Origin: an uncultured Gemmataceae bacterium
GTDB lineage: Bacteria > Planctomycetota > Planctomycetia > Gemmatales > Gemmataceae
Reading direction: 5' to 3'
Length of the DNA: 64,000 nt
Assembly (NCBI GenBank): GCA_963750165.1
Contig: CAVVPN010000011.1
Coordinates: 1,856,001-1,920,000, forward strand
Under the pieces are notes generated by a model that saw only the letters and a program-made list of their open reading frames with translations, did no database searches and had not been told where the DNA came from. How positions within the stretch are numbered: position 1 is the first letter of the stretch; every line of letters starts with the position of its first letter. The position numbers and the translations under genes are program-made. Shown here piece by piece: positions 33,609-64,000 of this stretch.

Positions 33609-35723
33609 TTACATGCGATCCAGGGTTTCAATCCACATCGCCAGCTTCGACAGCGTGGCCTCATCGAAGTATTCACGGCCGCGGTCGGGCAACTCGAGAT
33701 ACCATGTGGGGAAGCGGCGCTCGATCAGAACCTTCAGGCGGTCACGCAACGCCCGCACGATTGGGTCGCGGCCGCCGCAGGCGATGAAAAACGACAGCCG
33801 CTGGTTGGCCACGTTGTTGCCCGGCTCCAGCGGCGGCACGGCTCCGGTGGTGGCCACGCCGCGGAACAGGTCGCGAGCGCCGAATCCCAGGCTGATCGCC
33901 ATCTGACCGCCGACGCCCATGCCGTGCGCCACGATCCGCTGCCGGTCAATGTTGTACGTCGCCAGCACGTCACGCACCGCCGCGGTCACGATCTCCTGCT
34001 CGCTCGGCACCCAACCGGCGTCCGCCTCGGACTTCGGCCCCAGCACGATGCAGTGGTTGTCGTTGCAAAAGTCCTCCCACATGTCCTTGACTTTCTCGTT
34101 TTCCTCGTCGGTGTACTTGCCCGGCTGGTGCAGCCAGACTACCAGCGCATAGGAGATGTTCGGGTCGTACTTCGGCGGCACGTAGACCCAGTACGGGTGG
34201 TTGCCCGCGGCGTTGGTCCGCTTGAGGAAACCGGTCTTGGGATCCTTCGGCAACGGCTCCTGCTTTTGCGGCTTGATGTTCGGCCCGCTCGTCTTCAGCG
34301 GCGCCTGGGCCTTCATGAGCGTTGTCGGCTCCGGCACCTCCTTCGGCACCACGTACACGCTGGTCAGCGTCGAGCCCGGCATGCCGTCCAGCTGTCCGGT
34401 CAGCACCGCCTTTTGCTTGGCCGCCTTGCGAATCACGTCCAACTTGATTTCCTGGCCGGGCATGGCCGCGTTGAGCCAGTCCAGCATCTGGGCCTGGCCG
34501 CGCTTCTCGCCGGTGAACGCCAGCGCCTTGCCGGCGATGGTGACCTTCGTGATCTGGTCGCCCGCCTTCAGGCCCATCTTGTCGGCCGGGCTTTTCGGAT
34601 AGACGTAGCGCACCAGCACGCCCAGCTCAGGGTCGTCGCGCACCGGCAGGATGCCGAGGTACGGGTGCTGGTACACCGTCTTGTCGCTGACCAGATCGAA
34701 GGTCAATGGCAGCGTGTCGTTGCCGCGCTTCACCTTGAGCGTCACCGAGTCGCCCTCGTACTTGGTGCCGATGGCGTGGCGGATCTGTGCCAGGTTAATG
34801 ACCGCCTTGCCGTCCACCTCCAGGATGGTGTCGCCGGTCTTGACGCCGCCGCGCACCGCCGCGGAGCCCGCCTGCACCGCCGCGACCACCGGGACCGCCC
34901 CGATCTCGTCGCCCTGGTTCTTCAGGGCGACGCCCAGTTCGCCCTTGTGCATGTCCTTGCCCTCCTTGAGCCGCGGCAGCATGGCCAGTACGTCCTCCAT
35001 TGGCACGGCGAAGCCGATGCCGCTGTCGTACCACTCGAAGCCGGCGGTCTCGCCCTCGGTGCGCGGCGAGGCCGGCACGAGGATGCCCTGGACGCGGCCG
35101 CGGATATCGACGAGGGGGCCACCGTAGTTGACCGGCGAAACCTTGGCGTCGGTCTGCACTGCCTTGCCCCAGATGCGATTCAGGGCGCTGATGATGCCGA
35201 TGCTGATCGACGGCGGCGAATCCTTCTTGAGCTTGGCGTCCAGGGTGCGGCCGAGGGCGATGGCCCACTGGCCGACCTTGATGTCCTTCTTGGGGACCAC
35301 CGCCGGCACGGGCAGGCCAGTCTTCTTGACCTTGAGCAGCGTCAGCATGCGCGAGCGGTCGGTGGCGATGCGCTCGGCGACGAGCGGTTCCTCGCCGGGG
35401 ATGATGACCTGAATGGTCTTGGGGTTGTTGATGAAGTTGAAGGCGCTGGAGATGATGTAGCCGTCGGCGCTGACGATGACGCCGGTGGTCGGGCCGATGG
35501 CCTTGGAGAAGGTGACGCCCTTCTTGGCGTCAATGACGACGCGGTCGGTGCCGCCCTGCGTGGTGATCTGCACGACGCTGGGAGCGACCTTGCGCGCCGC
35601 CGCCTTGATCCTGTTTTGGTGCTGCTCGTTGCTGCCGCTGGGCGGCTGGGCCGTCAGCGGCGCCGCTGCCCACAGGCTCGCCAGCAGCAGCCCCAGGGTG
35701 AGTGCGCGTGGCCGGATGAACAT
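33609..35723 (-). CDS. Exported HtrA-like pseudoprotease with two PDZ domains and a C-terminal esterase-like domain
   Basis: Trypsin fold with ISSAFNF / RSRMLTLLK / SPVNYGGP (triad absent); two PDZ; YWVYVPPKYDP...LVVWLH...HGMGVGG. Confidence 0.85.
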   Translation of the reverse strand: MFIRPRALTLGLLLASLWAAAPLTAQPPSGSNEQHQNRIKAAARKVAPSVVQITTQGGTDRVVIDAKKGVTFSKAIGPTTGVIVSADGYIISSAFNFINNPKTIQVIIPGEEPLVAERIATDRSRMLTLLKVKKTGLPVPAVVPKKDIKVGQWAIALGRTLDAKLKKDSPPSISIGIISALNRIWGKAVQTDAKVSPVNYGGPLVDIRGRVQGILVPASPRTEGETAGFEWYDSGIGFAVPMEDVLAMLPRLKEGKDMHKGELGVALKNQGDEIGAVPVVAAVQAGSAAVRGGVKTGDTILEVDGKAVINLAQIRHAIGTKYEGDSVTLKVKRGNDTLPLTFDLVSDKTVYQHPYLGILPVRDDPELGVLVRYVYPKSPADKMGLKAGDQITKVTIAGKALAFTGEKRGQAQMLDWLNAAMPGQEIKLDVIRKAAKQKAVLTGQLDGMPGSTLTSVYVVPKEVPEPTTLMKAQAPLKTSGPNIKPQKQEPLPKDPKTGFLKRTNAAGNHPYWVYVPPKYDPNISYALVVWLHQPGKYTDEENEKVKDMWEDFCNDNHCIVLGPKSEADAGWVPSEQEIVTAAVRDVLATYNIDRQRIVAHGMGVGGQMAISLGFGARDLFRGVATTGAVPPLEPGNNVANQRLSFFIACGGRDPIVRALRDRLKVLIERRFPTWYLELPDRGREYFDEATLSKLAMWIETLDRM

Positions 35724-35742
35724 GGGAAAACCCTCGAAAAAA

Positions 35743-35800
35743 GGATGAAGGATGAAGGATGAAGGATGGCTTTTATTTCATCCTTCATCCTTCATCCTTT
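35743..35800. repeat. Inverted heptamer arrays (GATGAAG)n/(TTCATCC)n
   Basis: ggatgaaggatgaaggatgaaggatg ... tcatccttcatccttcatcc. Confidence 0.85.
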
Positions 35801-35804
35801 TGTT

Positions 35805-36920
35805 TTATGGCGCCTTCGGCTTGGGCTGCGCGCGCAGCTTGAGCCGCACCGTCTCCAGCCGTTCGCCGCGCTGCACCTCCAGAACGACCTCGGTGCCTGG
35901 CCGCGCCGCCCCCATGATGTCGCGGAAGGCGCGGATGCTCGGCACCAGTTCGCCGTCGATGTACACGATCAAATCGTCCGGCCGCAGGCCCTTCTCGGCG
36001 GCCGGCGAACCGGGGATCACTTCCTCGATGTACGGCGGCGTGACGCTGACGGAGTTCGGCACCAGCACGATGCCGTGGAAGCCGCCCGCGTTCTTGTCGC
36101 GGGCCTTGACGCCGCTGCTCTGGCGATACTTGCCCGCGATGGCCTCCTTGACAAAGGTCGGGATGTCCACCGTCGCCTTGACCAGTTCGCCCTTGTCGTT
36201 TTCGCGGGTGATCTCGGTTTTGGCCTGGATGGGCACCGCGTAGTTGATCCAGGTGTTGGACAACGTGTGCTTCAGTTCACGGCCGATGATGCCAAGCAGT
36301 TCGCCCTTGTACGTGGTCACGACGCCGCCGGCAGCGCCGGGGTTGCACATCACCGTGTCGATGAAGTAAACGTCGCCCATGTACGGCGCATCGAAGGCAC
36401 CGCGCTGGCTGCGCAGGTCGGTGTGCGCCGCGACGACGCCGCGCTGCACCGACATCGCCTCGTTGCGTTCGCCGATCTTGAACTGATTGCTGAACGCCAG
36501 CACCCAGTCGCCGGGCTCGGCCATTTTGTTCTTGGCCAGTTTCGGGATGTCGAAGTATTTGAGGAAGCTGACCTCGCCGTCAATCTTGAGCATGGCCACG
36601 TCGAGTTCCGGCTCGCGGGCGGTGACCTTGGCCGAGTAAATCCGGCCGTCCGAAAGGTGGACCTTGAGGTCGGTGGTGCCCAGGATGTGGTTGTTGACGG
36701 TGAGGATGTGGCCTTCCTTGGAGACGAGGATGCCGGTGCCGTAGGCGGGCAGGCCCTTGAAGCCGCCGGCGCCGAACAGCTTGACCATGCGCTGGTTGAC
36801 CACCTCGGCGGCTGGCGTGAACGCCTCCTGAGCCGCCAGGGGCCGCGGTGCCACGGCGAAGGCGAGGGCGCTCGCCGCCACGGCCAGCAGGGCCCGTGCC
36901 AGGGGGGAAGGTCGGATCAT
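35805..36920 (-). CDS. Exported HtrA-like protein with one PDZ; catalytic Ser replaced by Ala
   Basis: GILVSKEGHILTVNNH, ELDVAMLK, NPGAAGG; PDZ PGSPAAEKGLRPDDLI. Confidence 0.85.
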   Translation of the reverse strand: MIRPSPLARALLAVAASALAFAVAPRPLAAQEAFTPAAEVVNQRMVKLFGAGGFKGLPAYGTGILVSKEGHILTVNNHILGTTDLKVHLSDGRIYSAKVTAREPELDVAMLKIDGEVSFLKYFDIPKLAKNKMAEPGDWVLAFSNQFKIGERNEAMSVQRGVVAAHTDLRSQRGAFDAPYMGDVYFIDTVMCNPGAAGGVVTTYKGELLGIIGRELKHTLSNTWINYAVPIQAKTEITRENDKGELVKATVDIPTFVKEAIAGKYRQSSGVKARDKNAGGFHGIVLVPNSVSVTPPYIEEVIPGSPAAEKGLRPDDLIVYIDGELVPSIRAFRDIMGAARPGTEVVLEVQRGERLETVRLKLRAQPKPKAP

Positions 36921-37044: not shown

Positions 37045-38910
37045 TCACGGATTCATCGTAACCTTGGTGACGTTCAACGTGCCGTAGTGGCGGGCGCGAC
37101 CGGGGTTGGCCTGGTCGCCGTAGTACACCTGAATGCGGTGCGGCACCTGCCGGCCGCCGACGGCGCGGTAGTCGGACAGGTACACCTCACACGGATCCTC
37201 ATTCTCCTTGAGCCGCGCTTCGAAGCCGGCCAGTTTGCCGTCCTTGCGGTCGAAGAACCACTTGACCAGGTGGGTGCCGATGCCGGTGTTGAGCACGTCG
37301 GTGTCGCCGGGCAACCGCAGCGCCTTGAGGCTCTTCGGCGTGCTGTTGTCGGTGGGCGGCGGATAGAACGGCTCGATGCCGCCGTAGTCGAATTTGCTCT
37401 CGAAGCCCTTGAGGCCCTGGGTCAGCAGCCGTTGATACAGGCTCATGGCCGCGAGCAGACCGCCGCTCTCCTTCGGCTGTTTCAGCACGTCGTCCTGGTT
37501 GGCGTTGAACGGCGCCAGGAAGTATTCCGTTTTCTTGCCCGACTCGATGGTCAGGCGCACGACCGGGACGGGGGTGTTGCCCTGGCCCTCGACCAGTTCC
37601 TTGCCGATCTTCAGCACAAAGACCGACGGCGTGTTGGCCTTGAACAGGTTGATGGTCCCTTCGAGCGTCCAGTTGTCGCCGGTGCCGGCGAAGTTGCCGT
37701 GCTTGCCGAACGCCTCCAGCACGCGGTCGCGCTGTTGCTGGTTGAAGTAATAATTGGCGAACCCCGCTTTGGCCACGTAGAACTTGGCCGCCGGCGAACC
37801 GGCCACGGGCGGCACGGGCGGCGCCGGTTTCTGACCGGGCGTCAGGTCCTTGCGCTGAATGCCCATGAGCCGCACGAGAATTTCCTTGTCCTTCATGCCC
37901 GCCTTGGCGTCCGGCCGGCGGTACTCCAGCGGCACGCGCCAGCCGCGCGGATACAGCCCCATGACGTTCTTGAAGTGGTTGACGCTCGACAGCACCCGGC
38001 CGTCGAGAGACAGCACCTCGTCATCAACGTCCACGCCGCGGCGGAAGACATCGGAGTCTTCCAGAATCGACTGCACCGTCATCTTGGCGAAGCCGTTCTT
38101 GTCGGTCTGCGACACCAGCAGAGCGCCGAGGCTGGCGTGGTCGCTATCGAGGCCGCCGTGCAGGTGGCCGAGGAAGTTCTTGATCTGGTTGATCGAGATG
38201 GCATAGCCGACGCCGGAGTTGATGCGGGCGCGCTTATCGAACGAGCCGCGGCCGTTGATGCCGATGAGTTCGCCTTGCATGTTGAACAGCGGGCCGCCGG
38301 AGTTGCCCGGGTTGATGCTCGTGTCGATCTGGATGCAGTCGGTGTATTCCAGCAGGATACCGGACGGCGGCTGATAACGGTGGACGCCGCTGATGAGGCC
38401 GTAGGTGACGGTTGGCGTGAAGTCGGTGGCCAGCAGGAACGGATTGCCCATCGCCAGCGACCAGTGCCCCTCGCGCACCTTGTCGCTGTCGCCGAGCGGC
38501 GCGAAGGGGAATTGTTGCCCCTCCTTCTTGGGCAGCAGCTTGATGAGCGCCACGTCGCCAACCTTGTCGAGGCCGACGAGCACGGCGTCATAGAGGACGC
38601 CGTCGGGCAGGCCGCACTGCATGGTGGGGCCGGTCGGGGCGACGACGTGGAAGTTGGTCAGGGCGTAGCCGTCCGCGCTGATGAGCACGCCGGAGCCGCC
38701 GCCCTTCTTGCGGTCGTGGGCGAAGACGGCGACGACGGCCGGCCTGACCTTCTCGATAACGGCGACGCGCTCGGCCTCGGCCTTGAGGATGGCGTCGTCG
38801 CCGTCCTGCTGCGTCACCGACCCTTCGGCCAGGCCCAACAGCAGCAGGGCCGTCACGGCAAGGAACAGCGGCAACGTCCAGCGTCCGCGGAATAGCTTGG
38901 TGATGCGCAT
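37045..38910 (-). CDS. Exported HtrA/DegP-like serine protease with intact triad, PDZ and C-terminal extension
   Basis: GSGVLIS..GYALTNFHVV, GDVALIK, IDTSINPGNSGGPL. Confidence 0.9.
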   Translation of the reverse strand: MRITKLFRGRWTLPLFLAVTALLLLGLAEGSVTQQDGDDAILKAEAERVAVIEKVRPAVVAVFAHDRKKGGGSGVLISADGYALTNFHVVAPTGPTMQCGLPDGVLYDAVLVGLDKVGDVALIKLLPKKEGQQFPFAPLGDSDKVREGHWSLAMGNPFLLATDFTPTVTYGLISGVHRYQPPSGILLEYTDCIQIDTSINPGNSGGPLFNMQGELIGINGRGSFDKRARINSGVGYAISINQIKNFLGHLHGGLDSDHASLGALLVSQTDKNGFAKMTVQSILEDSDVFRRGVDVDDEVLSLDGRVLSSVNHFKNVMGLYPRGWRVPLEYRRPDAKAGMKDKEILVRLMGIQRKDLTPGQKPAPPVPPVAGSPAAKFYVAKAGFANYYFNQQQRDRVLEAFGKHGNFAGTGDNWTLEGTINLFKANTPSVFVLKIGKELVEGQGNTPVPVVRLTIESGKKTEYFLAPFNANQDDVLKQPKESGGLLAAMSLYQRLLTQGLKGFESKFDYGGIEPFYPPPTDNSTPKSLKALRLPGDTDVLNTGIGTHLVKWFFDRKDGKLAGFEARLKENEDPCEVYLSDYRAVGGRQVPHRIQVYYGDQANPGRARHYGTLNVTKVTMNP

Positions 38911-38925: not shown

Positions 38926-39440
38926 TTAGTCATTAGTCATTAGTCATTAGTTTCAGTTGGCGGATTCCTCAAATCAGTCCGGTCGCTGTTGTTGGTGTTG
39001 CCGACGGATTTTAAATAGGAGTTCAGTTGGGGGCAGAGGTTATCAACGAGCGGTTTCAATTGAGAAATCTGTTCTGACGACAGCAATTTTCGTCGAAAAG
39101 CACGACGAAGCCAGTGCCGGGTCTCGTAAAGCGAACCGCGAGCGATCCGAATGTAGCGCCGGTTGTCCTGATAAGACCCTCGCCCCGTGCCTTCTGCAAT
39201 GTTGGCGCCAACGCTGTCGGCGGCACGGATGAGTTGCTTTCCAACGGTATCCCGTGGCAAAGAAGCCCACGTAATCACGATGTTCCAAACCGCATCAGCT
39301 AATTCCTCAGCCAAGCCATACACACGTAACTCCTCAAACGACTTTCCGGCCATGCCAGCCTCCTCGTGCCAGGCCTCCTTCTCTGATCCGAATATTTAGT
39401 GCCTGATGCCTAATGACTAATGACTAATGACTAATGACTA
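38926..39440. mobile_element. Candidate cassette: four-helix-bundle gene bounded by inverted (TTAGTCA)n/(TGACTAA)n arrays
   Basis: Arrays at 38926-38950 and 39410-39440; a gene-less copy of the same arrays lies at 51957-52035. Confidence 0.6.
38940..39353 (-). CDS. Four-helix-bundle protein (23S rRNA IVP/S23-like family)
   Basis: FEELRVYGLA, QLIRAADSVGANIAEG.GR, IARGSLYET..WL; visibly more AT-rich than its neighbours. Confidence 0.92.
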   Translation of the reverse strand: MAGKSFEELRVYGLAEELADAVWNIVITWASLPRDTVGKQLIRAADSVGANIAEGTGRGSYQDNRRYIRIARGSLYETRHWLRRAFRRKLLSSEQISQLKPLVDNLCPQLNSYLKSVGNTNNSDRTDLRNPPTETND

Positions 39441-40640
39441 CTGGGTCACCTTGGCGTCCGCCAGCGTCACATTATCATACAGGTCGAGCAGGTTGGACGA
39501 GCTAACGATGATGCGCAGGCGCTGGACGCCCTCGACGTTGAGGTCGAGCGGCACCGCGTCCTTGGCGGTGATGACCTTGGAGAATTTCTTGGCCCCGTCC
39601 AGCTCGATGGTGACGTGCGGCTGATAGACGCCGGCCTGCTCGGACTCCGGCGGCGGCAGGACCGCCAGCACCGCCTTGAACTTCTTGTACTTGCCGCCCA
39701 GGTCGTACTCCACGTCGGTGTACGCCCGCAGCGTCAGGCCCTTGGCGAACGGCGTGCCATTCACCTTGATGTCCTCGTTGTCCAGCGTCTTGTCCCTGCG
39801 CAGCTCCTCGCTGAACGTGTCGAAGACCCCCGCGCGCGACTTGCGCACCGGATCCCGAGCGGGCCGCAGGTCGGACAGGTACGTCAGTTTGCCCATGTTG
39901 TAGTCGAAGCGGGCGATGTTCTTGGAGTCATAGGTCAGCTGGACGCCGCCGGCCGTGGTGACAGTGAAGGTGTTGCCTTTCACGGCCACCTTGCTCGCCG
40001 CCAGACGGTTGCCCTGTTCGTCGATCACCTGACAGACGACGTTCTCGGGCACCTTCTCCTCGCGGTAGAAGATGATGCCCTTCACGTTGGCGAGCGACCG
40101 CGTCAGTTCCTTGTCGCCCAGACGGAACGTGACGTTCTCGCCCTTGGCGTCCACCGCCTTGATGGTCACCTCCAACGATTTCAACTCGTCGTTGGCCACG
40201 ACCAGCAGCCGGTCGCGCTTGGGCCGGTTGGTCAGCAGCGCCTCCCAGTCCTTGCGGACCTCCGTCTTGTGAGCGTCCTGCAGGAAGGTTACCACCTTGT
40301 CGAGGTCCACCTTCACGTCCTGGCCGGTCAGCAGTTTCAACTCCGCCTGCTTGCCCTTGACGGACACCTTCGCGCAGCGGAGGACCGACTGATCGACGAG
40401 GCGAACCTCGGCGTACTCGGTGCCGGCGGGCACGCCCTTGACCTCGTGGAGGTCCAGCGCCAGGATGTCGGCCAGCGGCGTGGTCACGTCGCCGGTTTCG
40501 GTCTTGAGCGTGACCGCCTTGTCGGTGACGGCGGTGATGGTGCCCTTGATGGTTTTGCCGCTGAGGGTGCGTAGCTCGTCGGCCTGGGCCAGCGCGGTGG
40601 CGCAGAACAGCAGGGCGAGGGAGGTGCGGAAGACAGGCAT
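39438..40640 (-). CDS. Exported protein with C-terminal NPCBM/NEW2 domain
   Basis: Signal peptide; YLSDL...RDKTLD..I..NG..FAKGL...YDLGGKYKKFKA...LNVEGVQRLRI...LADAKV. Confidence 0.85.
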   Translation of the reverse strand: MPVFRTSLALLFCATALAQADELRTLSGKTIKGTITAVTDKAVTLKTETGDVTTPLADILALDLHEVKGVPAGTEYAEVRLVDQSVLRCAKVSVKGKQAELKLLTGQDVKVDLDKVVTFLQDAHKTEVRKDWEALLTNRPKRDRLLVVANDELKSLEVTIKAVDAKGENVTFRLGDKELTRSLANVKGIIFYREEKVPENVVCQVIDEQGNRLAASKVAVKGNTFTVTTAGGVQLTYDSKNIARFDYNMGKLTYLSDLRPARDPVRKSRAGVFDTFSEELRRDKTLDNEDIKVNGTPFAKGLTLRAYTDVEYDLGGKYKKFKAVLAVLPPPESEQAGVYQPHVTIELDGAKKFSKVITAKDAVPLDLNVEGVQRLRIIVSSSNLLDLYDNVTLADAKVTQ

Positions 40641-40832: not shown

Positions 40833-41939
40833 CTACTTGCGCTGCAACTCAGCGTCGCGAATCCGCCGGAAGTAATCCTCGAACACCTGGCGGTGCTGCG
40901 GGCTCATGCCGTCGATCAGGTCGTAAATCTCACGACTGATGCGCTCCTGCTCGGCCGCCGGCAGGTTGCCCCAGCCGTCGATCATCTTGCGGACGCGGGC
41001 CGGATCGACCTTGCCCTTGCCGCTCTGACCGCCCAGCTTGCTATCCTTCATCGGCGATTTCGGCTGACCGGCCTGGTTGCCGGGCTGGTCGCCGTCGCCG
41101 GGCTGGCTGCCGTCGGGGCACTGGCCGCCGTTGGGCTGACCGGGCTGGCCCTGGCTCTGCGACTTGGCCTTGTTTTCCATCTCCTTGATGAGTTCGTCCA
41201 GGCGAGCGATGATGTCGCGCTGGATTTCCTGGGTCTGCGGGCCGCCGCGGGCCAGCTCCAGCCGCCGCTCGACGTTATCCATCTTGCGCGCGATGGCCGA
41301 CAGGTCCTTTTCCTTCCAGGTCTGCATATCCAGCAGCATCAGCGCCCCGACCGTCTTGAAACGTTCGGGAGCGTCAATGGCCTGGCCGAGCAGCCGCAGG
41401 ATGGTCCCGCGGGCCTCGTTCTTCTGCAGCAGGGCGTGCTCGCAGACGGCGCGGTGGAACAGGTACGCGGCCGGATCGACCACACCATTCACATCGACGG
41501 TCTTGAGCAGGTCCAGCGCCTCCTCATGAACGCGGCGGTTCGACAGCGACCGCGCATAGGCCAGCGCCAGGTTGTCGCGGAAGAACTTGTCGGCCTTGGC
41601 GTTCTTGAAGAATGGATCGACCTCCTTGGGAGCCGGCGCCTGCGCGTCGCGGGCCTCGGCCAGCAGGCGGGCCGCCGTGGCGTCACCGGCCTCGAAGGTC
41701 GCGGCCATCCGTTCCAGAACGGTGGCGTCCTGGTTCTTCCAGATGGTCGCGAACTGTTGCAGCTTGGCGGCGTTGTTGCCAACCGCCGCCTTGAACCACG
41801 TTTGTGCCTTGGCCTGGGCGACCTCGGGGCTCATCCCCTCCAGAGCCCGGAAGGCGGGCTTCCTGGCGTCCTGAGCCGAAGTGACCCCGCCCAGCAGGGC
41901 GAGGACGGCCAGGCTCGCGAGCCTGTAGTGCAGCTTCAC
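40833..41939 (-). CDS. Exported helical hypothetical protein with Q/G/P-rich linker
   Basis: Signal peptide; YLFHRAVCEH; MDNVERRLEL; WGNLP...FEDYFRRI. Confidence 0.85.
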   Translation of the reverse strand: MKLHYRLASLAVLALLGGVTSAQDARKPAFRALEGMSPEVAQAKAQTWFKAAVGNNAAKLQQFATIWKNQDATVLERMAATFEAGDATAARLLAEARDAQAPAPKEVDPFFKNAKADKFFRDNLALAYARSLSNRRVHEEALDLLKTVDVNGVVDPAAYLFHRAVCEHALLQKNEARGTILRLLGQAIDAPERFKTVGALMLLDMQTWKEKDLSAIARKMDNVERRLELARGGPQTQEIQRDIIARLDELIKEMENKAKSQSQGQPGQPNGGQCPDGSQPGDGDQPGNQAGQPKSPMKDSKLGGQSGKGKVDPARVRKMIDGWGNLPAAEQERISREIYDLIDGMSPQHRQVFEDYFRRIRDAELQRK

Positions 41940-41942
41940 TGG

Positions 41943-44138: not shown

Positions 44139-44477
44139 GAGAACGGTCCTCCCGAGACCGGGGCGTTCGCGTCAGGCGCCCGGGGTTGATCTGCCCCGGT
44201 GGCCACTGGCGCCCCCATAATTTGCTGCATTCGCCAGGTGGTCGGCTCGCAGGCTGCCCCCCATGGGATGGGATCCTGCGGCCCACCGCTCACGCCGCTT
44301 GGATTCCTCCCGCCGCGTAAGCCTACGTCCCTTAAGACGAACCGCCTTACCCTTCCCAACATCTTAACCCCTGGAACGGCGGTTTGTCACGGCTGAAGTC
44401 AACTTTTCTGTTTTTCCTTGCAACTCCGGCGCACGGACGCGGCCCGCGCGAAACGTAAACGGGGTCAGCTGGGACTT

Positions 44478-51400: not shown

Positions 51401-51944
51401 GCTTGACGACCTTTTCCTGGCGCGTGGGCCGGAGGTTCGGGTTCTGACCGGGCTGGGGCAGGTCGTCCTGGTGGTTCATGCTGGCGGACACGTCGAACAG
51501 CAGGAGGATGCGGGCGGGCGTCTCGTAGCTGTTGTAGTATTGCCAGCCTGGCAGCAGGAACACCAGGGCGAGGATGGCGTAGACGCAGCAGCGCAGCAGG
51601 CCGAGGAAGGCCGCCAGCACGGGGTGGATGGTCTGGGCGTCGCGCTTGTACATCAGGACGATGTAGACGAACGCCACGGCCAGGACCGGGGCGAGGATGA
51701 GCCACCAGCCGAACAGGTCCTTGAACAGGTAGCCGAGGGCGAGGTAGGGCACCGCCAGGACGAGGACGACGCCGCCAAAGATGCCGAGGGTGGCCAACCT
51801 GTTTTCGCGACGGAACAGGACAATCAGGCCGACGACCGCCAGCGCGAACAGCACCGGGAACAACAACTCCCAGCCGCCGAGGCCTTCCTGCAGACGGCGG
51901 AAGAGAAATTCACTGCTCTGGGTGGTCTTGGTATCGGATAACAT
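48456..51944 (-). CDS. Membrane protein with vWA domain and glutamine-amidotransferase-like domain
   Basis: N-terminal TMs; MIDAS FDVSASM...TD...IGDG; YDLII.FD, GGLIFVAG, LLPV, ESWR, FW; C-terminal TMs ending EWLMRKLMKLA. Confidence 0.88.
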   Translation of the reverse strand: MLSDTKTTQSSEFLFRRLQEGLGGWELLFPVLFALAVVGLIVLFRRENRLATLGIFGGVVLVLAVPYLALGYLFKDLFGWWLILAPVLAVAFVYIVLMYKRDAQTIHPVLAAFLGLLRCCVYAILALVFLLPGWQYYNSYETPARILLLFDVSASMNHQDDLPQPGQNPNLRPTRQEKVVKLLTTPFADKSGKKLSLVQRLEGRAPLVAYRFGGVADEESVTFQGNHTWAAADWKRWLTLDPRTIRPRDDLKGAEREQYIAERKVRYEQMLNGTDYGAVLRLMQRESNNNVQAVIVIGDGQNNKGSEEAYRQIVNLANNPRKLVPVWTVGIGEYNQPTRIRLNPLRAPTTVRPDDESFKVIAPIFGDRLPGETITVQLFVTKIADKYQNDLEHLRDPNTGEPIRDPKGAMVKDPAVKPLPIASQKVKLSTGEFPAAEVEFNVPLTELAKLVNVADIKADHEGKLQGQWRFIVKVPRHPRENFADPEHVTEPGKVVQISDKRLSILMIAGGPSKDYQFTRTMFYREHQAERVKLAIYLQGADGEDINQDIDPQNLLTQFPNKFEAPKKTGGDKEKDKKDTDRSEVTDPYNLKRYDLIIAFDFNWAALEARQIELLHRWATEDKGGLIFVAGDTNTDKLATPGEDAEKLKPLLSLLPVTLKDSRDEDADRVFKGKPPVQRVTPQPLFFLNSKDYPFIYLDGDKSWDQFFHPADPDEKRGFYRAQPIMEKSAFAKVVAEFEHEGGMPYFVYGQPQGKGKSFYIGSEESWRLRHLSAQFHQKFWLRLAAFVSTSSETRKQGKIFMAEEYLVGPVKIEAEVRDAAGQLVKRLIRPQGTLRRLDAPAEAGKKDGVPFNLTAKDASTDDGIFTNTLEVKTPGVYVVDIQVPDGEREKISHSFVVLPLNVETGNPRPNFYSLYQMSTDYRSLLEGLSGDKEVKAAKKARLEQILQESQRRIDNVDPGKVSAADRLFLDEEQARNLYEFIEKQAPERQETKGAFKEMWDEGWRPAADEPVFVPAWGLLLIPAVLGGFMCLLLLISGRWQALAVVGGATLAVTLALLIVVASIWGLNGDLELYMVMSAYNVLLLVPAVVAAVAVLILLVIGRWIAAIVTVALTGVYSLGLYLANNIYQPEWALLPLHMSWVLLAVVGLLSLEWLMRKLMKLA

Positions 51945-51956: not shown

Positions 51957-52035
51957 TAGTCATTAGTCATCAGTCATTAGTCATTAGTTTCAAAGAACCT
52001 TCCTTCGGCCGGTTCTTGCTAATGACTAATGACTA
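51957..52035. repeat. Gene-less inverted (TTAGTCA)n heptamer element
   Basis: tagtcattagtcatcagtcattagtcattag-tttca...-ctaatgactaatgacta. Confidence 0.85.
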
Positions 52036-55000: not shown

Positions 55001-55217
55001 CGGTGAGCAGCACCAGCAGGCAGCGCAGCGCCAGCAGCAGCAGTTGCTCGATGATGAGCCGGCGGCGGCTGCGCTTCTGGGCCTTGAGCAGGAACTCCAT
55101 CGCGGCCCAGCGCAGCCGCTTGAAGCGCATGCGGTTAATCAGGTGGATGATGATCGGCGCACTGATGAGCGCGCCGCCGGCCGCGACGTATCCGGGATTT
55201 GTGAATAACTCAATCAT
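52033..55217 (-). CDS. BatA-N/vWA membrane protein, frameshifted near 53390
   Basis: PIIIHLINR.RFKRLRWAAMEFL...LLLALRCL; LDDTLSM...LSDF; GGGVAFFLG. Continues in ORF 52033..53388 (GKGRV, NVD.REGNL, LIAEQALA). Confidence 0.85.
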
Positions 55218-55324: not shown

Positions 55325-56251
55325 TCAAGCGCGTGCCTTCGCCGCTTTCGAGATCGCCATGCGGTGGTGCAGGAACTTGGCCAGCACCGCGTCGAGGTAT
55401 TCGCCGGTGTGGACCAGGGCGTAGTCGATGCCCTGCCGTGAACAACCGCGGCGCACCTCCACGAGATACTCCTCCAGCGCCTCGATGTAGCCGTCACGCA
55501 GCGCCCGCGGGTCGCAGAGCACGTGCTGCAGCTCCTCCATGCCCTCGAAGCGTGTGGTGCCGCTGAAGGGGAACTTCAGCTCGTCGTCGTCCATGACGTG
55601 GAAGACGAGCACGTCATGGCGACGGTGCCGCAGCATTTCGAGACCGCGGAACAGCGATTCGCGGTCCACCAGCAGATCGGAAATCAGCACGACCATGCCG
55701 CGCGACGGCATGCTCTCGGCGACGCGCTTGAGGATCTTTTCCGGGTCGGTCTTGTCACGCGGCCGGCTGACGTCCATGGCCTTGACCAGGGCGTCGATGT
55801 GCGTATTAGCACTGCGCGGCGGGATGACCTGGCGGACATTCTCGTCGAAGGTAATCAGGCCGCAGGAGTCCTGCTGGCGCAGCAGCAGGAAGGCGAGGCA
55901 GGCGGCGATGGTGCAGCCGTAGTCGTACTTGTTCATCGGGCCGCGGCCGTAGTGCATCGAGTTGCTGACATCCACGACCAACGTGGTGCGCAGGTTGGTC
56001 TCTTCCTCGAACTGCTTGATGTAATACTTGTCGGTCTTGGACCAGACCTTCCAGTCGAGGTGGCGGATGTCGTCGCCAGGGGTGTAGTCGCGGTGCTGCA
56101 CGAACTCGACGCTGTGGCCGAAGAACGGGCTGCGGTGCATACCAGAGATGAAGCCCTCGACCACCTGGCGGGCGCGCAGGTCGAGCCGGGAGATGCGCGC
56201 GATGGTCGTGGGGTGCAGGAAGCGGCGGGGGTCGTCGGTTTTTACGGCCAC
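55325..56251 (-). CDS. DUF58 (vWA-like) MoxR-associated protein
   Basis: G.HRSPFFG.SVEF.QHR.Y.PGDDIR.LDWK...KQFEEETN...DVSNSM...ISDL. Confidence 0.95.
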   Translation of the reverse strand: MAVKTDDPRRFLHPTTIARISRLDLRARQVVEGFISGMHRSPFFGHSVEFVQHRDYTPGDDIRHLDWKVWSKTDKYYIKQFEEETNLRTTLVVDVSNSMHYGRGPMNKYDYGCTIAACLAFLLLRQQDSCGLITFDENVRQVIPPRSANTHIDALVKAMDVSRPRDKTDPEKILKRVAESMPSRGMVVLISDLLVDRESLFRGLEMLRHRRHDVLVFHVMDDDELKFPFSGTTRFEGMEELQHVLCDPRALRDGYIEALEEYLVEVRRGCSRQGIDYALVHTGEYLDAVLAKFLHHRMAISKAAKARA

Positions 56252-56297: not shown

Positions 56298-56765
56298 TCA
56301 CGGGCCTGTTTGCTGGAGGGAATGCGGCACGGGTTCTTCCTGGGCGTGCGCTGGCGCCACCTGCACGGGCACCGGGGTGATCGTGAAGTGGTGCTCCGAG
56401 GGCGTATTCATGAAGGACACCTTCCAGGACTGCGGACACACCTCCGGGTGCGTGTTCTCGTTCAAGAGGATGAGCCCTTCGCCTCCGTAAAGCGTTCCTT
56501 GCAGGCTGCCGCTTTCGGTGCAGAGAACACTTAACCGAGCACAGAGCATCCGCAACTTGGTTTTGGCCCTGCCTAACGGTGCCACCCAGGCCGGTTGGCC
56601 CGTTGTTTCGAAACGCAATCCGGTATCAGCGTCGCGAGTGCCACGGACTTCCCCAACTTCCCCAGACAGGGCCAACAAGTCATCAAGGAAACGCACCAGG
56701 CCGCCTTGATGATCGTCGGCCAGGTGCGTCAGCACCAACTCGCGGATTCGGCTCTCGGCGTTCAT
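56298..56765 (-). CDS. Hypothetical protein resembling a stand-alone GspE/PilB N2 (PAS-like) domain
   Basis: VRFLDDLL...LRFETTG...LCARLSVLC...GEG...WKVSFMNT; ATGA overlap with the upstream gene. Confidence 0.6.
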   Translation of the reverse strand: MNAESRIRELVLTHLADDHQGGLVRFLDDLLALSGEVGEVRGTRDADTGLRFETTGQPAWVAPLGRAKTKLRMLCARLSVLCTESGSLQGTLYGGEGLILLNENTHPEVCPQSWKVSFMNTPSEHHFTITPVPVQVAPAHAQEEPVPHSLQQTGP

Positions 56766-57123
56766 GGAACCACGATCCTCCTGGGCAGCGTTGGCCAGAG
56801 GGTAAGGAGTTCTTCCAGCCCAAACCCGGGCTCAAACCGGATCTCCCCAACACCTCTGCCTTTTGTGCGAGCGACTCAGGCACCGCAACCTCGATTATGG
56901 CAGGTCCACCCTCATTCGGGAACAGCAACGCCTTCGCGGCCGCAACATCTGCCGGTTCACCGCACAGGCACGGCTCACCAATTCGGGCGGTCGAGAACCC
57001 TTCTGCGGTATCCGGGACACCTGGTTCCTTGAAGTCCGGGTCTGGCCCATGGTCGAGGATCGCCTCCGCTCGTCTCATCGTGGTCCCGTGTCTGAGCCAA
57101 ACGAAGGGTTCGTCGGAAGCCAT
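56762..57123 (-). CDS. Small putative ADP-ribosyltransferase-like protein, frameshift near 56848
   Basis: LRHGTT...AEAI...GFST...GGPAIIEV.VP. Shifted frame gives GEIRFEPGFGLEELLTLWPTLPRRIVVP* with its TGA overlapping the next ATG. Confidence 0.55.
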
Positions 57124-57176
57124 CGCTGTTCACTCGCATCCATGACGATCGCGCAAACAACCATGTGCCATGCCCC

Positions 57177-57912
57177 TCAGCTTCGACTGCGACTCGCCTT
57201 GAACGAGCCGGCCGTCTTGCCAGACCTTTTGGCCGGGATGTCGTCGTCAAAGTCCCGATCCGGCAGCGGGCGTTTCTTCTTCTTTTTCGGGGCGTTGTTC
57301 TTCAGCACCATCCAGATGACGCCGCCGGTGATGCCCGCGATGGCGAGGAACACTACCACGCCGGCCACAATGATGATCGCCAGGGTGCCGCCGCTCGGGC
57401 CGCTATCGGCGACTTGAGGTGCTGCCCCGACCCCTGTTGGCGTCGTTGCCCACCGGGCCAATGACCAGTTTGTCGCCGCCGGCTTTCTTCTCGGGCTGTC
57501 GCTGCGGCGGATTGTTGTTCACTACCGGGTTGCCGCCGCCGATGCCGTTCATGATCCGGGCGCCACAGCTCGGGCAGGTGGCCGGCGGGAACGCGCCGGT
57601 GCCCATGACCGCGTTGCACCGGCTGCACTTCCAGACGCTCTGCATCTGGGGCATCTGGATTGGCGGCGGCGGTTTGAACTGCGGCGGCTGCATGATGGGC
57701 GGTTGTTTGAACTGCGGCGGCTGCATGATGGGCGGTTGTTTGAACTGCGGCGGCTGCATGATGGGCGGTTGTTTGAACTGCGGCGGTTGCATGACGGGCG
57801 GCGGGTTGAACTTCTGCTGCGCTTCCAGGCCGCCGCCGACGAAAATGACCAGCGCGGGGAGCGCGAGCGCGAAGGCGATTCCGAGACGCCGTAGATTCGG
57901 ACAACGCTGCAT
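57177..57912 (-). CDS. Membrane protein with 11-aa PPQFKQPPIMQ repeats and Zn ribbon, frameshifted near 57430
   Basis: Signal-like N-term, 33-bp tandem repeats, CSRC...CPSC; TM helix and KKKKK tail in ORF 57177..57461. Confidence 0.7.
57662..57805. repeat. 33-bp coding tandem repeat (about 4 copies)
   Basis: gggcggttgtttgaactgcggcggctgcatgat units. Confidence 0.9.
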
Positions 57913-58017: not shown

Positions 58018-59133
<1,116 letters not shown>

Positions 59134-59306: not shown

Positions 59307-60444
59307 TTATCTTTGATAGATAGGCAAGGTGCCCTTGTCCAGTTGCAGGATGGTGCAGTAAATAGCGGTGGAGTACACCGGGCCGACACCGAAGCCGCCC
59401 TGCTGGCTGGTCCAGCTACCGTCCTTGTTCTGCGCCTTGACCAGGTCGTCGAACATCTTGTTGCGGTATTCGGTCCAGGTCAGCTTGGCGCCGCCCTCGC
59501 CGGGGAACAGTTTCTCCCAGCCCTTGTCGCCGAGCGTGTAAATGCTCTGGGCGAAGTAGTAGTGCGTGTACTCGTCGTGGCCGATGCGGATGCCGCCGTT
59601 GCCCAGGCCCAGGCCAATCGGGATGCGCTCCTGACACGCCTTGAGCCACTTCTTGGCGTACTCGTCCTTGTATTCGCCGGAGTTGAACAGGCAGGCCACG
59701 GCGGCGGCGGTAATGGCCGGCCGCTCGATCTTCTGGTTGAAGCTGTAATAGACCTGGCCGGACGGGCTGGTGCAGTCCTTGAGGTACTTCTGAGCCTTGA
59801 CGATCGCGTCCTTGGGCACGGGAATGCCGGCGTTGCGCCGCCCGCAGCGCCTGCACCTGGGTGATGGTCACGGAGCCCTCGTCGTTGTCGCCGCCCTCGG
59901 CGCGCGAGGTGTAGTACCAGCCGCCCTTGCTCGACTGGGCGTTAATCATGTACTTGACGCCGCGCGTCAGGATGTCGCGCAGCTCGGCGCGGCGCTTGGC
60001 GTTGCCCTCGTCGCCGTAGACACAGGCCAGAAACATCAACCCGAAACCGTGGCCGTACATGTAGCGGATGGCCTCGTTCTGCTCGGTGGTGTCGCCGATC
60101 AGGCCGTCGCGCTGGTTGCCCTTCTGCGACTTCTTCATCAGCCAGGTGACCGCCCGCTCGATCTGCTTGGCGTACTTGCCCTCCTTGGGAGTGCTGCCCT
60201 CCATGAGCAGGGCCATGCCGGCCAGCGCGGTCATGGCGACCGGATACTGGCCGCCGTTGGCGGCCCAGTGGCCCTCCTTCTTGTCGTCGGAGACGATCTG
60301 TTTTTCGACGAGCCATTTCAGCCCGTCGTTGATGGTCTGGCGATATTTCTTGGGGATCTCGTCAGCCCGGGCGCGCGGGGCGGGGCCGACGGTCAGCGCC
60401 GCCAGGGCGGTCAGGGACGCCACAACCACGGTCAAGCGAAACAT
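59307..60444 (-). CDS. Exported prenyltransferase/squalene-oxidase-repeat protein, frameshifted near 59838
   Basis: GLKWL, MTALAGMALL.EGST, YMYGHGF, QSSKGGWYY, DEGSVT. ALRAA(RNAG) is broken by a 2-bp loss; continues in ORF 59307..59819 (HDEYTHYY, QNKDGSW, LPIYQR). Confidence 0.88.
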
Positions 60445-60509: not shown

Positions 60510-61628
60510 TCATCGTCCGCCATCCATCGGAACGTCGTTTTCCAGTTGCAAGATGGTCAAATAAACCGCGGTCGAATACACCGGGCCGAGGGTGAAGCCG
60601 TTCTGCACGCTCCAGGAACCGTCCGTGGCCTGGGTCTGCACCAGTTCGTCGAAAATCTTGGCCCGATAGCCCGACCAGGTGAGGCGGTCGGCGGCGTCCG
60701 CGCCGAACATCCGATCCCAACCCCGGTCGCCCAGGATGAAGGCCGCCCGGGCGTAGAAATAGTGGGTGAATTCCTCATAACCCTGGCGGGCCTGGTTGTT
60801 GGCCAAACCCAGGCTCAGCGGGGTCCGCTGCCGGCAATACTGTAACCACTTCTGCACGTGCTCATCTTTTTGCTCGGCGAAGTTCAGCACCGCGACCACG
60901 GCGCCCGCGGTCAGGCCGGGCCGTTCGTGCTTCGCCGTGCTGGAGTAGTAGACGCCACCATTCGGCCCGGTGTTGTTGCGCAGGTAAGCCTGGGCTTTCT
61001 TGAGCAACTCTCGGGACACGGGGATGCCGGCGTTGCGGGTGGCCCGCAGCCCGTAAATCTGGGTGATGGTGATGGCACCCTCGTCCTGGTCGAAGCCCGG
61101 TTGCCAGGCGTAGTGCCAGCCGCCCTTGCTCGACTGCGTGCGCTCCAGGTACTTGACGGCCCGGGTGAGCACGTCCTTGCTTTTGTCGCGCGACTCGCGT
61201 TTCGGGTCGTCGCCGTAGGCTCGTGCCAGGAACTCCAGCGCCTGGCCGTGGCCGAACATGGGCCGCGGGTCACGGTCGGGGTTGCCGATGAGCCCGTCGT
61301 GCTCGCCGCCCTTCTGGCTCTGCCGGAGCAGGAAGGCGATGGCTTTTTGCAGATGCCTGGCGTATTTGCCTTCGTGAACCGTGCTGCCCTCCAGCGCCAG
61401 GGCGGTGCCGGCCAGCGCGGTCAGCGGGACCTTGTATTGGCCCTTGACGTCCCAGCTGCCGTCCGCACCCTGCTGCGCCGCCAGCCATTCCAGCCCCCTG
61501 GCGGTGGCCCGGCGGGCCTTGTCCTGCTCGTTCTGGGCCTGAAGGCGCGGTACGACGACGGCCAGCGCCAGCAGCGCGGCGGTCGTGACGACAGCGGTCT
61601 TCAGGAGGGACACCGGGGGAAACTCCAC
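60510..61628 (-). CDS. Exported prenyltransferase/squalene-oxidase-repeat protein (divergent paralogue)
   Basis: GLEWLAAQQGADGSW, MFGHG, QSSKGGWHY, DEGAIT, LRATRNAG, QATDGSW. Confidence 0.9.
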   Translation of the reverse strand: MEFPPVSLLKTAVVTTAALLALAVVVPRLQAQNEQDKARRATARGLEWLAAQQGADGSWDVKGQYKVPLTALAGTALALEGSTVHEGKYARHLQKAIAFLLRQSQKGGEHDGLIGNPDRDPRPMFGHGQALEFLARAYGDDPKRESRDKSKDVLTRAVKYLERTQSSKGGWHYAWQPGFDQDEGAITITQIYGLRATRNAGIPVSRELLKKAQAYLRNNTGPNGGVYYSSTAKHERPGLTAGAVVAVLNFAEQKDEHVQKWLQYCRQRTPLSLGLANNQARQGYEEFTHYFYARAAFILGDRGWDRMFGADAADRLTWSGYRAKIFDELVQTQATDGSWSVQNGFTLGPVYSTAVYLTILQLENDVPMDGGR

Positions 61629-61703: not shown

Positions 61704-61711
61704 GGCTGGGT

Positions 61712-62861
61712 TCAGCGCTGGTATATCGGCAGTGTGCCCTTGTCGAGTTGCATCACTGTCAGGTACAGCGCCGTCGTGTAGACCGGGCCGATGCCGTAGC
61801 CGCCCTGCGACCAGCTGCCGTCCTTGGACTGCATCTGAACCAGGCGGTCGAACAGCTGGGCGCGGTAGGCCGTCCAGGTGACCTTCTCGTCACCCTTGCC
61901 CTGGCCGAACAGCTTCTCCCAACCGGTGTCGCCAAGCATGTACACCGCCTGGGCGTAGTAGTAGTGCGTGTACTCATCGTGGCCGAAGCGGACGCCGCCG
62001 CCGTTGATCGGGATGGCGTCCTTGCAGTACTTGAACCACTTGATGACGTACTCGTTGTTCTCCTTCTTGAAGTCGCCGGCGCTGAAGAAGCAGGCGATGG
62101 CGGCGGCGGTCAGCGGCGGTCGTTCGCCGCCCGCGGGGGCCTTCATGCCGCCGCGACCCAGGCTGTACACCACGCCGCCGCGCTCCGTCGTCGAGTGCTT
62201 CAGGTAGTCCTGCGCCTTCTTGACAAAGTCGCGTGGCACCGGAATGCCGGCGTTGCGGGCGGCACGCAGCGCCTGCATCTGCGTCACTGTCACGGAGCCC
62301 TCGTCGCTGTCGTGACCGTCGGCCTTGGAGGTGTAGTACCAGCCGCCCTGCGTCGATTGGGCGTTGCCGATGTACTTCACGCCGCGGGCGATCACGTCCT
62401 TCAGTTCGGCGCGGCGTTTGGCGTTGCCCTCGTCGCCGTAGACCGACGCCAGGAACATCACCGCGAAGCCGTGGCCGTACATGTAGCGCGTCGCCTCATC
62501 GCGGTTCTCGAAGTCGGCGATCAGGCCGTCGCGCTGGTTGCCCTTCTGGCTCATGCGCATCAGGAAGTTGACCGCCCGCTCGATCTGCTTGGAATACTTG
62601 CCGTCCTTGATGGTGCTGCCCTCCATGAGCAGCGCCATGCCAGCCAGGGCGGTCATGGCGACCTTGTGCTGGGCGCCGCCGGCGCTCCAGTAGCCTTCCT
62701 TCTTGTCGTCGCTGACGGTCTGCTTCTCGGCCAGCCACTTCAGGCCGGCTTCCACGTTGGGGCGATATTTCTTGGGGATCTCGTCCGCCCGCGCGCGGCG
62801 TGCTCGCCAGCAGCACCGCCACGCCGCACGCCAGAACCGCACTCCACGCCTTGGTCTTCAT
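61712..62861 (-). CDS. Exported prenyltransferase/squalene-oxidase-repeat protein; frameshift in the signal-peptide region near 62790
   Basis: ATG at 62861 after GAGGAG gives MKTKAWSAVLACGVAVLLAS, then shifts to RADEIPKKY...LPIYQR. Confidence 0.88.
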
Positions 62862-63038
62862 GTGTCCGTTACTCCTCGAACCACGTTCCCGGAACGAGAA
62901 CCTATCCCCTTCTGGTATGACGAACCACTGAACATTTCCTGACCAGTGATCTGCACGAAAATGTTCGGCCCCGTTTCTCTGCCGCTTGCGGCTTGGCGCA
63001 TGGAGCGCGCCAAGCCGCAAGTGGCGGAACAGACGGGT

Positions 63039-64000
63039 TCAGCGCTTCAGCGCCCGCATGAGGCGTGCTCCCCCGCCGGGCGCCGCGACGCCCTGCAGGG
63101 CCGCCGGTTGACCGCCGCCCTGCGGGGCCAGTGCCGCGTTGTCCTTGCGGCCGTCGTCGAGGTAAATTTGCTCGACGAACCCGTTGCCGACCAGGTTGAT
63201 GGTGCCCGCCTTCACGTCCACCGTGAAGGCGTTGAACTTGGAGAGAGTGGTATTGGGGGCAGTCTCCGTCTTGGCCGGCCAGGAGATGGTCCGGCCGTCG
63301 TCCGTCTTGCTGAAGACCGCCGTCTGCCAGACGCCCTGCTGACCTGGTTGGATCGGCTGGTTCGGCTGGAACGGCCGCACGTAGCGCGAACTGAAGACCA
63401 GCACCGGCAGGCTGCGGAACTGCTCCACCACAATCATCTGGTTCTGGACCTCTTCGCACAGGTGCCAGAGGAACTCGCCCTTGCCATCGATGCAGCAGAA
63501 CCAACCGTTGACCAGGTGGCAGCGCACGCCGTTGTTGAAGTTCGACGACACCACGCCGCCAGCGACCCGCCGCGTGTCGATCGGCTGGTTGAGCGCCACG
63601 TAGAAGTGCTCGGCGTCTCGCAGCAACAGCGGCCTGTGCAGGGTCTTGATGACCTCCGGCGTCACCTTGAACTGGACGAGGTTGCTCTTGACCAGCTCGC
63701 GCCGCGCTTTCAGGTCGATGACCGTCAGCACGCCCTTGGGGTTGATGACGCCGGCCAGGTATGGGTCTTCCGTCTCGCACACCACGGTGCCGTTGTCGAA
63801 CACCTGCTTGTACAGGTCCTGGCCGGTGAGCACGTCGTACAGCCGCAGCGTCAGGCCGTTGTTCGGGTCGGCCACCACCAGAGTGCGGCCGAGAATCCGC
63901 AGCCGATGCTTGAACATCGGCCCAAAATCCTTGACCTCAACAGGTGCGCCGTCCACCGCTCGCACCGCCCGACCGGGGCCGGCCACCAGGCCGCCGGGCG
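63039..64000 (-). CDS. 3' part of a large beta-rich protein (possibly PQQ-like beta-propeller)
   Basis: Open to the window edge; LRLYDVLTGQDLY, LTVIDLKA, CIDGKGEFLW. Confidence 0.65.
   Translation of the reverse strand, partial: PGGLVAGPGRAVRAVDGAPVEVKDFGPMFKHRLRILGRTLVVADPNNGLTLRLYDVLTGQDLYKQVFDNGTVVCETEDPYLAGVINPKGVLTVIDLKARRELVKSNLVQFKVTPEVIKTLHRPLLLRDAEHFYVALNQPIDTRRVAGGVVSSNFNNGVRCHLVNGWFCCIDGKGEFLWHLCEEVQNQMIVVEQFRSLPVLVFSSRYVRPFQPNQPIQPGQQGVWQTAVFSKTDDGRTISWPAKTETAPNTTLSKFNAFTVDVKAGTINLVGNGFVEQIYLDDGRKDNAALAPQGGGQPAALQGVAAPGGGARLMRALKR

Follow-up and report, generated by a model that had tools for sequence, protein, structure and literature searches.

A conserved planctomycete gene block joining a MoxR/DUF58/vWA module to a trio of HtrA-like proteins: gene content, distribution and predicted function

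Gene content of the locus

The window analysed here is a stretch of 64,000 nucleotides from an uncultured Gemmataceae bacterium (assembly GCA_963750165.1, contig CAVVPN010000011.1, positions 1,856,001 to 1,920,000), and it contains a long block of co-oriented genes encoding a MoxR ATPase, a DUF58 protein, membrane-anchored vWA proteins and three HtrA-like proteins. The block lies on contig C11 of a 9.6 Mb genome and, in the list of open reading frames (ORFs) of the window, consists of 19 minus-strand ORFs from 63,039 down to 33,609, all of them present in the order claimed by the initial annotation, which was made from the letters alone; the features below are on the minus strand unless stated otherwise. 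These ORFs resolve into a 13-gene core, two extra copies of an alpha/alpha-barrel gene and four inserts. In transcription order the core encodes a TPR/propeller protein, a barrel protein, MoxR, DUF58, BatA-vWA, a second membrane vWA protein (vWA2), a three-helix membrane protein, helical proteins of 731 and 368 amino acids (aa), an NPCBM protein, and HtrA1, HtrA2 and HtrA3, and the local additions outside it are three small ORFs in the MoxR-DUF58 interval, the gene for a four-helix bundle and two barrel genes out of the three. Pfam and NCBIfam recognise MoxR (AAA_3), DUF58, BatA, NPCBM, three trypsin/PDZ proteins and three proteins with squalene-cyclase repeats, and most products are predicted to carry a signal peptide or transmembrane (TM) anchor, as had been proposed, these predictions coming from a simple hydropathy scan and not from SignalP or DeepTMHMM. 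Judged by these sequence comparisons and by the distribution given below, we conclude that the cluster is real, conserved and a variant of the MoxR/DUF58/Bat systems, and that its function can be stated as a prediction.

The MoxR, DUF58 and membrane vWA proteins

The ATPase (58,018..59,133) is a MoxR protein of the MRP type, scoring 213.6 bits against AAA_3 versus 44.1 bits against bpMoxR and carrying both Walker A and Walker B. The DUF58 vWA protein (55,325..56,251; 165 bits) is predicted to be cytoplasmic and has an intact MIDAS, or metal ion-dependent adhesion site, the residues of which (D94, S96, S98, T168 and D192) are invariant in 16/16 sequences. BatA (52,033..55,217, frameshifted) combines a two-helix anchor with vWA, Ig/CARDB-like and GATase-like domains and a C-terminal helix, and the hydropathy scan finds a basic loop between its two N-terminal helices; vWA2 (48,456..51,944), in which the MIDAS is intact, likewise joins a vWA domain to Ig, GATase-like and MG2-like domains behind at least two N-terminal helices. 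MIDAS residues are conserved in both of these proteins, and by the positive-inside rule their vWA, Ig and GATase-like domains would be periplasmic. Furthermore, a glutamate just before helix 2 of BatA is found in 25 of 27 printed rows and is missing in one paralogue; by analogy with D220/E222 of NorB it is a candidate MIDAS ligand. The Bat-type core that had been proposed is thus borne out by domain matches and motifs alike, since all components of an MRP-type MoxR/DUF58/vWA operon were found, namely an AAA_3 MoxR, a DUF58 protein with MIDAS, a BatA-vWA protein and a further vWA protein of the membrane. A strict Bat operon (BatA-E) was rejected, as neither BatD nor BatE has a Pfam or NCBIfam match in the block.

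The three-helix membrane protein (44,638..48,357) has a conserved LERRFP loop, which is predicted to be cytoplasmic, a predicted Ig-like region and a helical C-terminus; none of its 22 members has a Pfam match, and there is a weak PKD/Ig-type match (E 0.012). DUF4175 (PF13779) in particular has no Pfam match at the locus, and its only match in the genome is below the cut-off and lies in a paralogous module on contig C3. The following gene encodes the exported helical protein of 731 aa (41,943..44,138), which has a long K/G/S/Q/D-rich linker and shares a helical repeat (hhalign probability 96.5) with the exported, all-helical and TPR-like protein of 368 aa (40,833..41,939). The latter is encoded by a single-copy gene in this genome, and its model (predicted local distance difference test score, pLDDT, 82) gives weak TPR-like structural matches only, none at E <= 0.001.

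Three HtrA-like proteins with reciprocal losses

All three of the HtrA-like proteins that had been annotated are indeed present, but a catalytic triad is found in HtrA1 only and the other two are conserved pseudoproteases, so that a reading as three active proteases was rejected. HtrA1 (37,045..38,910) has triad, LD loop and L3 arginine intact; HtrA2 (35,805..36,920) keeps the LD loop and the NPG oxyanion loop and is without the catalytic serine and the L3 arginine; HtrA3 (33,609..35,723) has tyrosine in place of the serine, a pair of PDZ domains and an alpha/beta-hydrolase domain that is degenerate, and retains the L3 arginine only. The arginine was identified from the alignment, a literature search for the DegS residue by its number having found nothing, and its role is presumably the one known from DegS and DegP. 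The His-Asp-Ser triad of HtrA1 is complete in 24/24 sequences, and in a larger set the serine is present in 48/48 and the full triad was scored in 46/48, with L3 arginine and LD motif both kept in all 48. HtrA2 in turn has the full triad in 0/42 sequences (one member has the serine but lacks the histidine), the LD motif in 42/42 and the arginine in 3/42, and HtrA3 has the full triad in 0/42, the tyrosine in 42/42, the arginine in 42/42 and the LD motif in 0/42; these counts leave out one fragment for HtrA1 and two for HtrA2. After thinning to below 80% identity the pattern is the same, with LD in 38/38 and arginine in 3/38 for HtrA2, and LD in 0/35 and arginine in 35/35 for HtrA3. As controls we used 75 of the 76 ordinary HtrAs found in a metagenome scan that also gave four HtrA1-type loci, and among them the L3 arginine is present in 73/75 and the LD loop in 68/75. 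HtrA1, HtrA2 and HtrA3 furthermore form separate clades that span classes, with support of 100/99 or better.

In HtrA trimers, L3 of one protomer positions LD of the adjacent protomer and thereby sets the active site (PMC11252331). Set against this arrangement, HtrA2 and HtrA3 are, by their sequences, pseudoproteases in which complementary halves of the contact have been lost, the former keeping the receiving LD loop and the latter the sending arginine. It appears rather probable that the three proteins form a heterotrimer, since there would be little reason for homotrimers made up of sender-only or of receiver-only dead subunits, and the reciprocal pattern would fit an ordered 1:1:1 ring in the direction HtrA3 -> HtrA1 -> HtrA2.

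Two further features of HtrA3 may be mentioned. The degenerate alpha/beta-hydrolase domain (33,609-34,300) belongs to the orthologues of class Planctomycetia, of which 1/15 long sequences has GxSxG, and is absent from the aligned orthologues of other classes. In class Planctomycetia the C-terminus is formed by LDR followed by a hydrophobic residue, an ending that may be a PDZ ligand.

The TPR/propeller, barrel and NPCBM proteins

What had been described as a beta-rich protein is present, but the window holds only the last 320 aa of an exported TPR/beta-propeller protein of 1,674 aa: the ORF at 63,039..64,000 is the 3' end of a gene of TPR-propeller-TPR-propeller plan that runs on to about 68,063, with some 4 kb of it beyond the end of the window. 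The protein matches PQQ_2 with 53.8 bits; its match to the PQQ dehydrogenase model (23.1 bits) is below the cut-off of 26.7 and no conserved catalytic signature was found in 12 aligned sequences, and a role as PQQ dehydrogenase was rejected on these grounds.

The three proteins with prenyltransferase-type repeats were likewise all found, but their triplication is a local expansion of one core gene. Toroid 1 (61,712..62,861) is an exported (alpha/alpha)6-barrel with a model pLDDT of 88, toroid 2 (60,510..61,628) is a divergent local copy, 47% identical to it, and toroid 3 (59,307..60,444) is a frameshifted local copy; among ten relatives with the gene in the block, two (G009 and G151) have two copies and the others one. 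Conserved residues of the barrel are DEGS, RP, GH and a C-terminal LPIYQR. An LPIYQR-like C-terminus (61,712-61,730 in toroid 1) is kept in most orthologues and in the paralogous modules, and toroid 2 is without it. The fold of the model is confident and its structural matches are generic (TM-score about 0.6, none specific); Atlas clusters of this kind are exclusively planctomycete-dominated. The barrels do not have DxDD, the catalytic motif of class II terpene cyclases of the squalene-hopene type, and have an invariant DEG-T in its position; with this and the generic fold matches, a squalene-hopene cyclase function was rejected.

The exported protein at 39,438..40,640 has a C-terminal NPCBM (CBM51-like) domain (67 bits), the profile of which matches CBM51 structures; a coupling to glycan binding had been suggested by the initial annotation. 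The column histidine, a binding-site residue in NPCBM/CBM51, is kept in 16/23 orthologues and lost in 7/23, among them the protein of this genome, and the predicted glycan coupling of the block is therefore weak.

Conservation and distribution

Synteny was examined over 30-40 kb around a marker in 40 genomes of the phylum, the group within which all distribution figures were taken; the 40 were picked for long contigs and a marker match, and thus not at random, and comprise 10 genomes of the same order, 19 of the same class and 11 of other classes, the last being an independent test because the hidden Markov models were trained on same-class genomes. All 13 genes occur within 40 kb in 8/40 genomes (same order 5/10, same class 0/19, other classes 3/11), the three from other classes being G107, for which the listed order of HtrA2 and HtrA3 stems from an overlapping ORF start, G112 and G134. 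The 11 genes from MoxR to HtrA3 are together in 10/19 same-class genomes, in G033 as two divergent blocks; in such genomes the barrel gene is relocated yet retained (5/5 tested), and it is ambiguous which of several paralogues is the propeller orthologue. In 28/40 genomes the three HtrA genes stand together, and three of the other-class rows (G031, G082 and G212) show weak modules only, which are probably paralogous. The expectation that similar clusters recur in planctomycetes thus holds across classes of the phylum, and the recurrence of the gene order in other classes is far beyond chance.

Unbiased draws give the 368-aa gene in 28/31 close genomes and in 59/201 genomes of the phylum, many of the matches being weak. 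One clear orthologue of vWA2 is found in 71/71 genomes of family f3 (at least 37% identity, against at most 31% for paralogues), and HtrA3-type proteins occur in 14/14 same-class and 21/187 other-class genomes (at least 337 bits, other HtrAs scoring at most 250). The module is near-universal in its class and patchy beyond it. Among named records, the nearest relatives of a marker gene of this genome come mostly from Gemmataceae and other planctomycete assemblies. Four records titled 'uncultured Alcaligenaceae' (L072, L075, L076 and L078) carry the planctomycete cluster at 48-54% identity, and we suspect for this reason that their titles are wrong.

Frameshifts, inserts and intergenic features

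Several genes of the block are frameshifted: toroid 1 near 62,790, in the signal-peptide region, toroid 3 near 59,837, BatA near 53,390 and the Pro-rich insert protein described below. Tested with proteins of relatives, 3/29 well-conserved loci elsewhere in the assembly are likewise broken, a fourth flagged row having been excluded as a paralogue artefact, and breaks are also present in the paralogous modules of the same genome. For these reasons the frameshifts are probably assembly indels. A reading as true pseudogenes was rejected.

MoxR directly adjoins DUF58 in the relatives shown, and in this genome three lineage-specific inserts, none of them core, intervene at 56,298..57,912: a Pro-rich/CxxC/TM protein and ORFs of 146 aa (56,683-57,123) and 155 aa (56,298-56,765), the last two without a Pfam match and possibly a small mobile pair. 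The 146-aa ORF has an N-terminal H-G-T motif of the kind known from ADP-ribosyltransferase-like folds. A fourth non-core insert, a four-helix bundle (TIGR02436; 38,940..39,353), stands between the NPCBM and HtrA1 genes and is flanked by 7-base tandem repeats at 38,926-38,951 and 39,406-39,440. The same heptamer occurs at 51,957-52,035, between BatA and vWA2, where nothing is inserted, and at 35,741-35,799, between HtrA2 and HtrA3, two heptamers form an inverted pair; the repeats are possibly footprints of a small mobile element. Scans of the block for sigma-70 promoters and terminators gave results near chance. Beyond the end of the block an HNH nuclease gene (32,746-33,504, plus strand) is convergent with it, and a similar-looking ORF follows HtrA3 in G001.

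Paralogous modules and essentiality in P. limnophila

The genome has seven BatA genes, two of which lie in modules of the same plan. The module on C1 (129-153 kb, BatA at about 131 kb) has MoxR, DUF58 and BatA together with propeller, barrel, NPCBM and HtrA nearby, and that on C3 (3.31-3.33 Mb, BatA at about 3.32 Mb) has MoxR, DUF58 and BatA; a third MoxR/DUF58/BatA module, on C12 near 739 kb, resembles a classical Bat cluster. Domain content fails to tell orthologues of the module from paralogues.

In a transposon insertion sequencing (TraDIS) study of Planctopirus limnophila, the insertion index of the four consecutive genes Plim_2312-2315 is 0.003-0.009, most genes around them being at about 0.1, with Plim_2312 annotated as vWA plus COG1572 and Plim_2313 as vWA plus COG5426, and the essential list also holds the MoxR gene Plim_1689, the DUF58 gene Plim_1690 and the squalene-cyclase-like Plim_0306 (PMC10632474). 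As these genes are listed as essential, we conclude that a MoxR/DUF58/vWA module of the same kind is essential in P. limnophila, be it this one or a paralogue. A literature search for six P. limnophila locus tags found no paper, and the searchable V. spinosum supplements gave 0 matches. In Leptospira, bat deletions had no phenotype (PMC3557215).

A predicted periplasmic machine and its alternatives

The best reading, on which our judgement is evenly poised, is that the block encodes an ATP-driven machine across the inner membrane that matures or proof-reads periplasmic proteins and has a probable 1:1:1 HtrA trimer as its protease. In its favour are the observed gene content and order, the retention among relatives, the intact MoxR and MIDAS motifs, the residues kept and lost in the three HtrAs and the essential genes of P. 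limnophila, while the single steps are inferred. NorQ/NorD serves as template for the first two steps: a MoxR hexamer would hold DUF58 as NorQ holds NorD, and the DUF58 MIDAS would grip an acidic residue that the membrane subunits present on their cytoplasmic face, for which the BatA glutamate is the candidate. The ATP-driven pull may then be relayed by way of BatA, vWA2 and the three-helix protein to the two periplasmic MIDAS domains, which would grip and release clients or load metal in the manner of MxaRSACKL acting on methanol dehydrogenase, with both helical proteins, together with the TPR/propeller protein, as a putative periplasmic scaffold. In the trimer, the L3 arginine of HtrA3 would pass an activating signal to HtrA1, the sole cutting subunit, and HtrA2 would receive the signal of HtrA1 and bind peptide without cutting, the assembly as a whole cutting or clearing substrates. 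The foremost candidate for a client is the barrel enzyme encoded in the same block.

A number of observations weigh against such a machine. No client protein has been identified; the L3 arginine may also act within its own subunit or structurally; and the HtrA sequences are related, so that their counts are not independent. HtrA3 orthologues were not found in 166/187 other-class genomes, with five candidates scored per genome. The C3 paralogue is without HtrA, and the protease would therefore be dispensable for some modules. The essential genes of P. limnophila are not assignable to this module over a paralogue; the sole pdxJ-adjacent module seen in a relative (G272) is a paralogue, although this is a weak clue; and an adjacent trio of HtrA genes was not found on the essential list in the portion available (PMC10632474). 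Gene order is broken at the junction of the three-helix and 731-aa genes in G001, G020 and G030, at that of vWA2 and the three-helix gene in G033, G233, G267 and G271 and at that of BatA and vWA2 in G065 and G213, and the 368-aa gene stands on its own in G013, G119 and G150. In the window itself the first of these junctions has a gap of 499 bases with a promoter-like site at 44,390, which makes a single transcript doubtful.

The broken junctions, the gap with its promoter-like site and the C3 module lacking HtrA could all be accommodated if two systems are merely co-located, a Bat-type module from MoxR to the helical proteins and an HtrA trio with NPCBM, sharing regulation without contact. We consider this unlikely, as the HtrA trio comes after NPCBM in genomes of several classes and the C1 paralogous module also has NPCBM and HtrA nearby.

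Rather improbable is the notion of a motor for the assembly or export of a surface structure, in which a helical stalk across the periplasm is moved by MoxR and the HtrA trimer processes subunits. Although the long helical proteins with their flexible linkers, the near-universal retention in the class and the essentiality of a module of the same kind in P. limnophila are in agreement with it, family searches assigned none of the products to an outer-membrane channel, a pilin or a secretion family, and the known MoxR/vWA systems remodel single targets (PMC12276312, PMC9976466).

Still less probable is a DegS-like relay, with the NPCBM protein as glycan sensor and an anti-sigma factor as the substrate that the HtrA trimer cuts. 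The presence of an NPCBM domain and the combination of one active site, regulatory partners and several PDZ domains would suit such a function, but Pfam and NCBIfam reveal no gene for a sigma or an anti-sigma factor in the block, the loss of the NPCBM histidine described above speaks against sensing, and the MoxR/vWA half is left unexplained. A MoxR-vWA-beta-propeller conflict (defence) system, suggested by the co-location of these three kinds of protein and the weak bpMoxR match of 44 bits, is highly improbable and was rejected, being largely refuted by stable retention, since the genes are single-copy and stably kept rather than patchy, the ATPase scores 214 bits against AAA_3 and is not of bpMoxR type, no bpX model matches and most products are predicted to be exported.

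Returning to the machine across the inner membrane, a more far-reaching version, which we regard as tentative and on balance doubtful, would make it an ancestral, near-housekeeping envelope machine in which MoxR, a cytoplasmic motor acting through the membrane, drives periplasmic vWA grippers and feeds an HtrA heterotrimer that is obligate, fixed in its order and has one active site. If true, this bacterial HtrA ring would be the product of three genes that divide the allosteric roles among them, and it would be coupled indirectly to cytoplasmic ATP. That the module is kept almost throughout the class points, for its part, to a central component of the unusual envelope of planctomycetes.

Comparison with known systems

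The absence of a functional description that had been assumed for the cluster agrees with our searches: neither the cluster nor the HtrA trio is described in the mostly open-access literature covered, although a 2012 planctomycete comparative-genomics paper may cover the cluster. The Rhizobium RL3499-RL3502 operon is reportedly a further example of an MRP-type MoxR/DUF58/vWA operon, and DUF4175/TIGR02302 helical membrane proteins are said to resemble products of this locus in their N-terminal helices, three in number, and in having linkers of low complexity as well as helical repeats, although the locus has no Pfam DUF4175 match. A likeness in gene order is to the Bat operons of Bacteroides, Leptospira and Riemerella, which have the same succession of MoxR, DUF58, BatA-anchored vWA and second membrane vWA, and for which a periplasmic complex has been proposed and the function is unresolved (PMC3557215, PMC11834572). 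The present block differs from them in that BatD and BatE have no match, that each of the membrane vWA proteins has Ig and GATase-like domains, and that the TPR/propeller giant, the barrel, the three-helix protein, the two helical proteins, NPCBM and three HtrAs are added. The role of the MoxR/DUF58/Bat operons has been open for some 25 years, and the question becomes testable here because there are fixed periplasmic partners, genetically tractable hosts and a module of this kind that is essential in P. limnophila.

In the MxaR/S/A/C/K/L system of methylotrophs, MoxR and three vWA proteins act beyond the inner membrane, the cluster also encodes a beta-propeller protein, and all six proteins are required for calcium loading of methanol dehydrogenase (PMC12276312). 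The propeller protein of the present block is by contrast a 1,674-aa TPR/propeller scaffold candidate below the PQQ dehydrogenase cut-off, and no co-encoded PQQ/Ca2+ dehydrogenase client was found in the block. NorQ/NorD shares with the predicted machine a MoxR hexamer and a MIDAS-bearing vWA adaptor that binds acidic residues of a membrane protein (PMC9976466). It is however a two-component system with a known enzyme target, whereas here the membrane partners themselves carry vWA domains predicted to be periplasmic.

Pairs of an active and a degenerate HtrA have precedents, as chloroplast Deg5/Deg8 set an active HtrA beside a degenerate one and MamE/MamO reportedly combine an active HtrA with a catalytically degenerate one. 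The trio described here would serve as a natural dissection of HtrA allostery, since the prediction is of a ring from three genes that has one active site and is activated in one direction, and it differs from both of these pairs in that its members are three tandem clades of old standing, in which L3 arginine and LD loop have been lost reciprocally.

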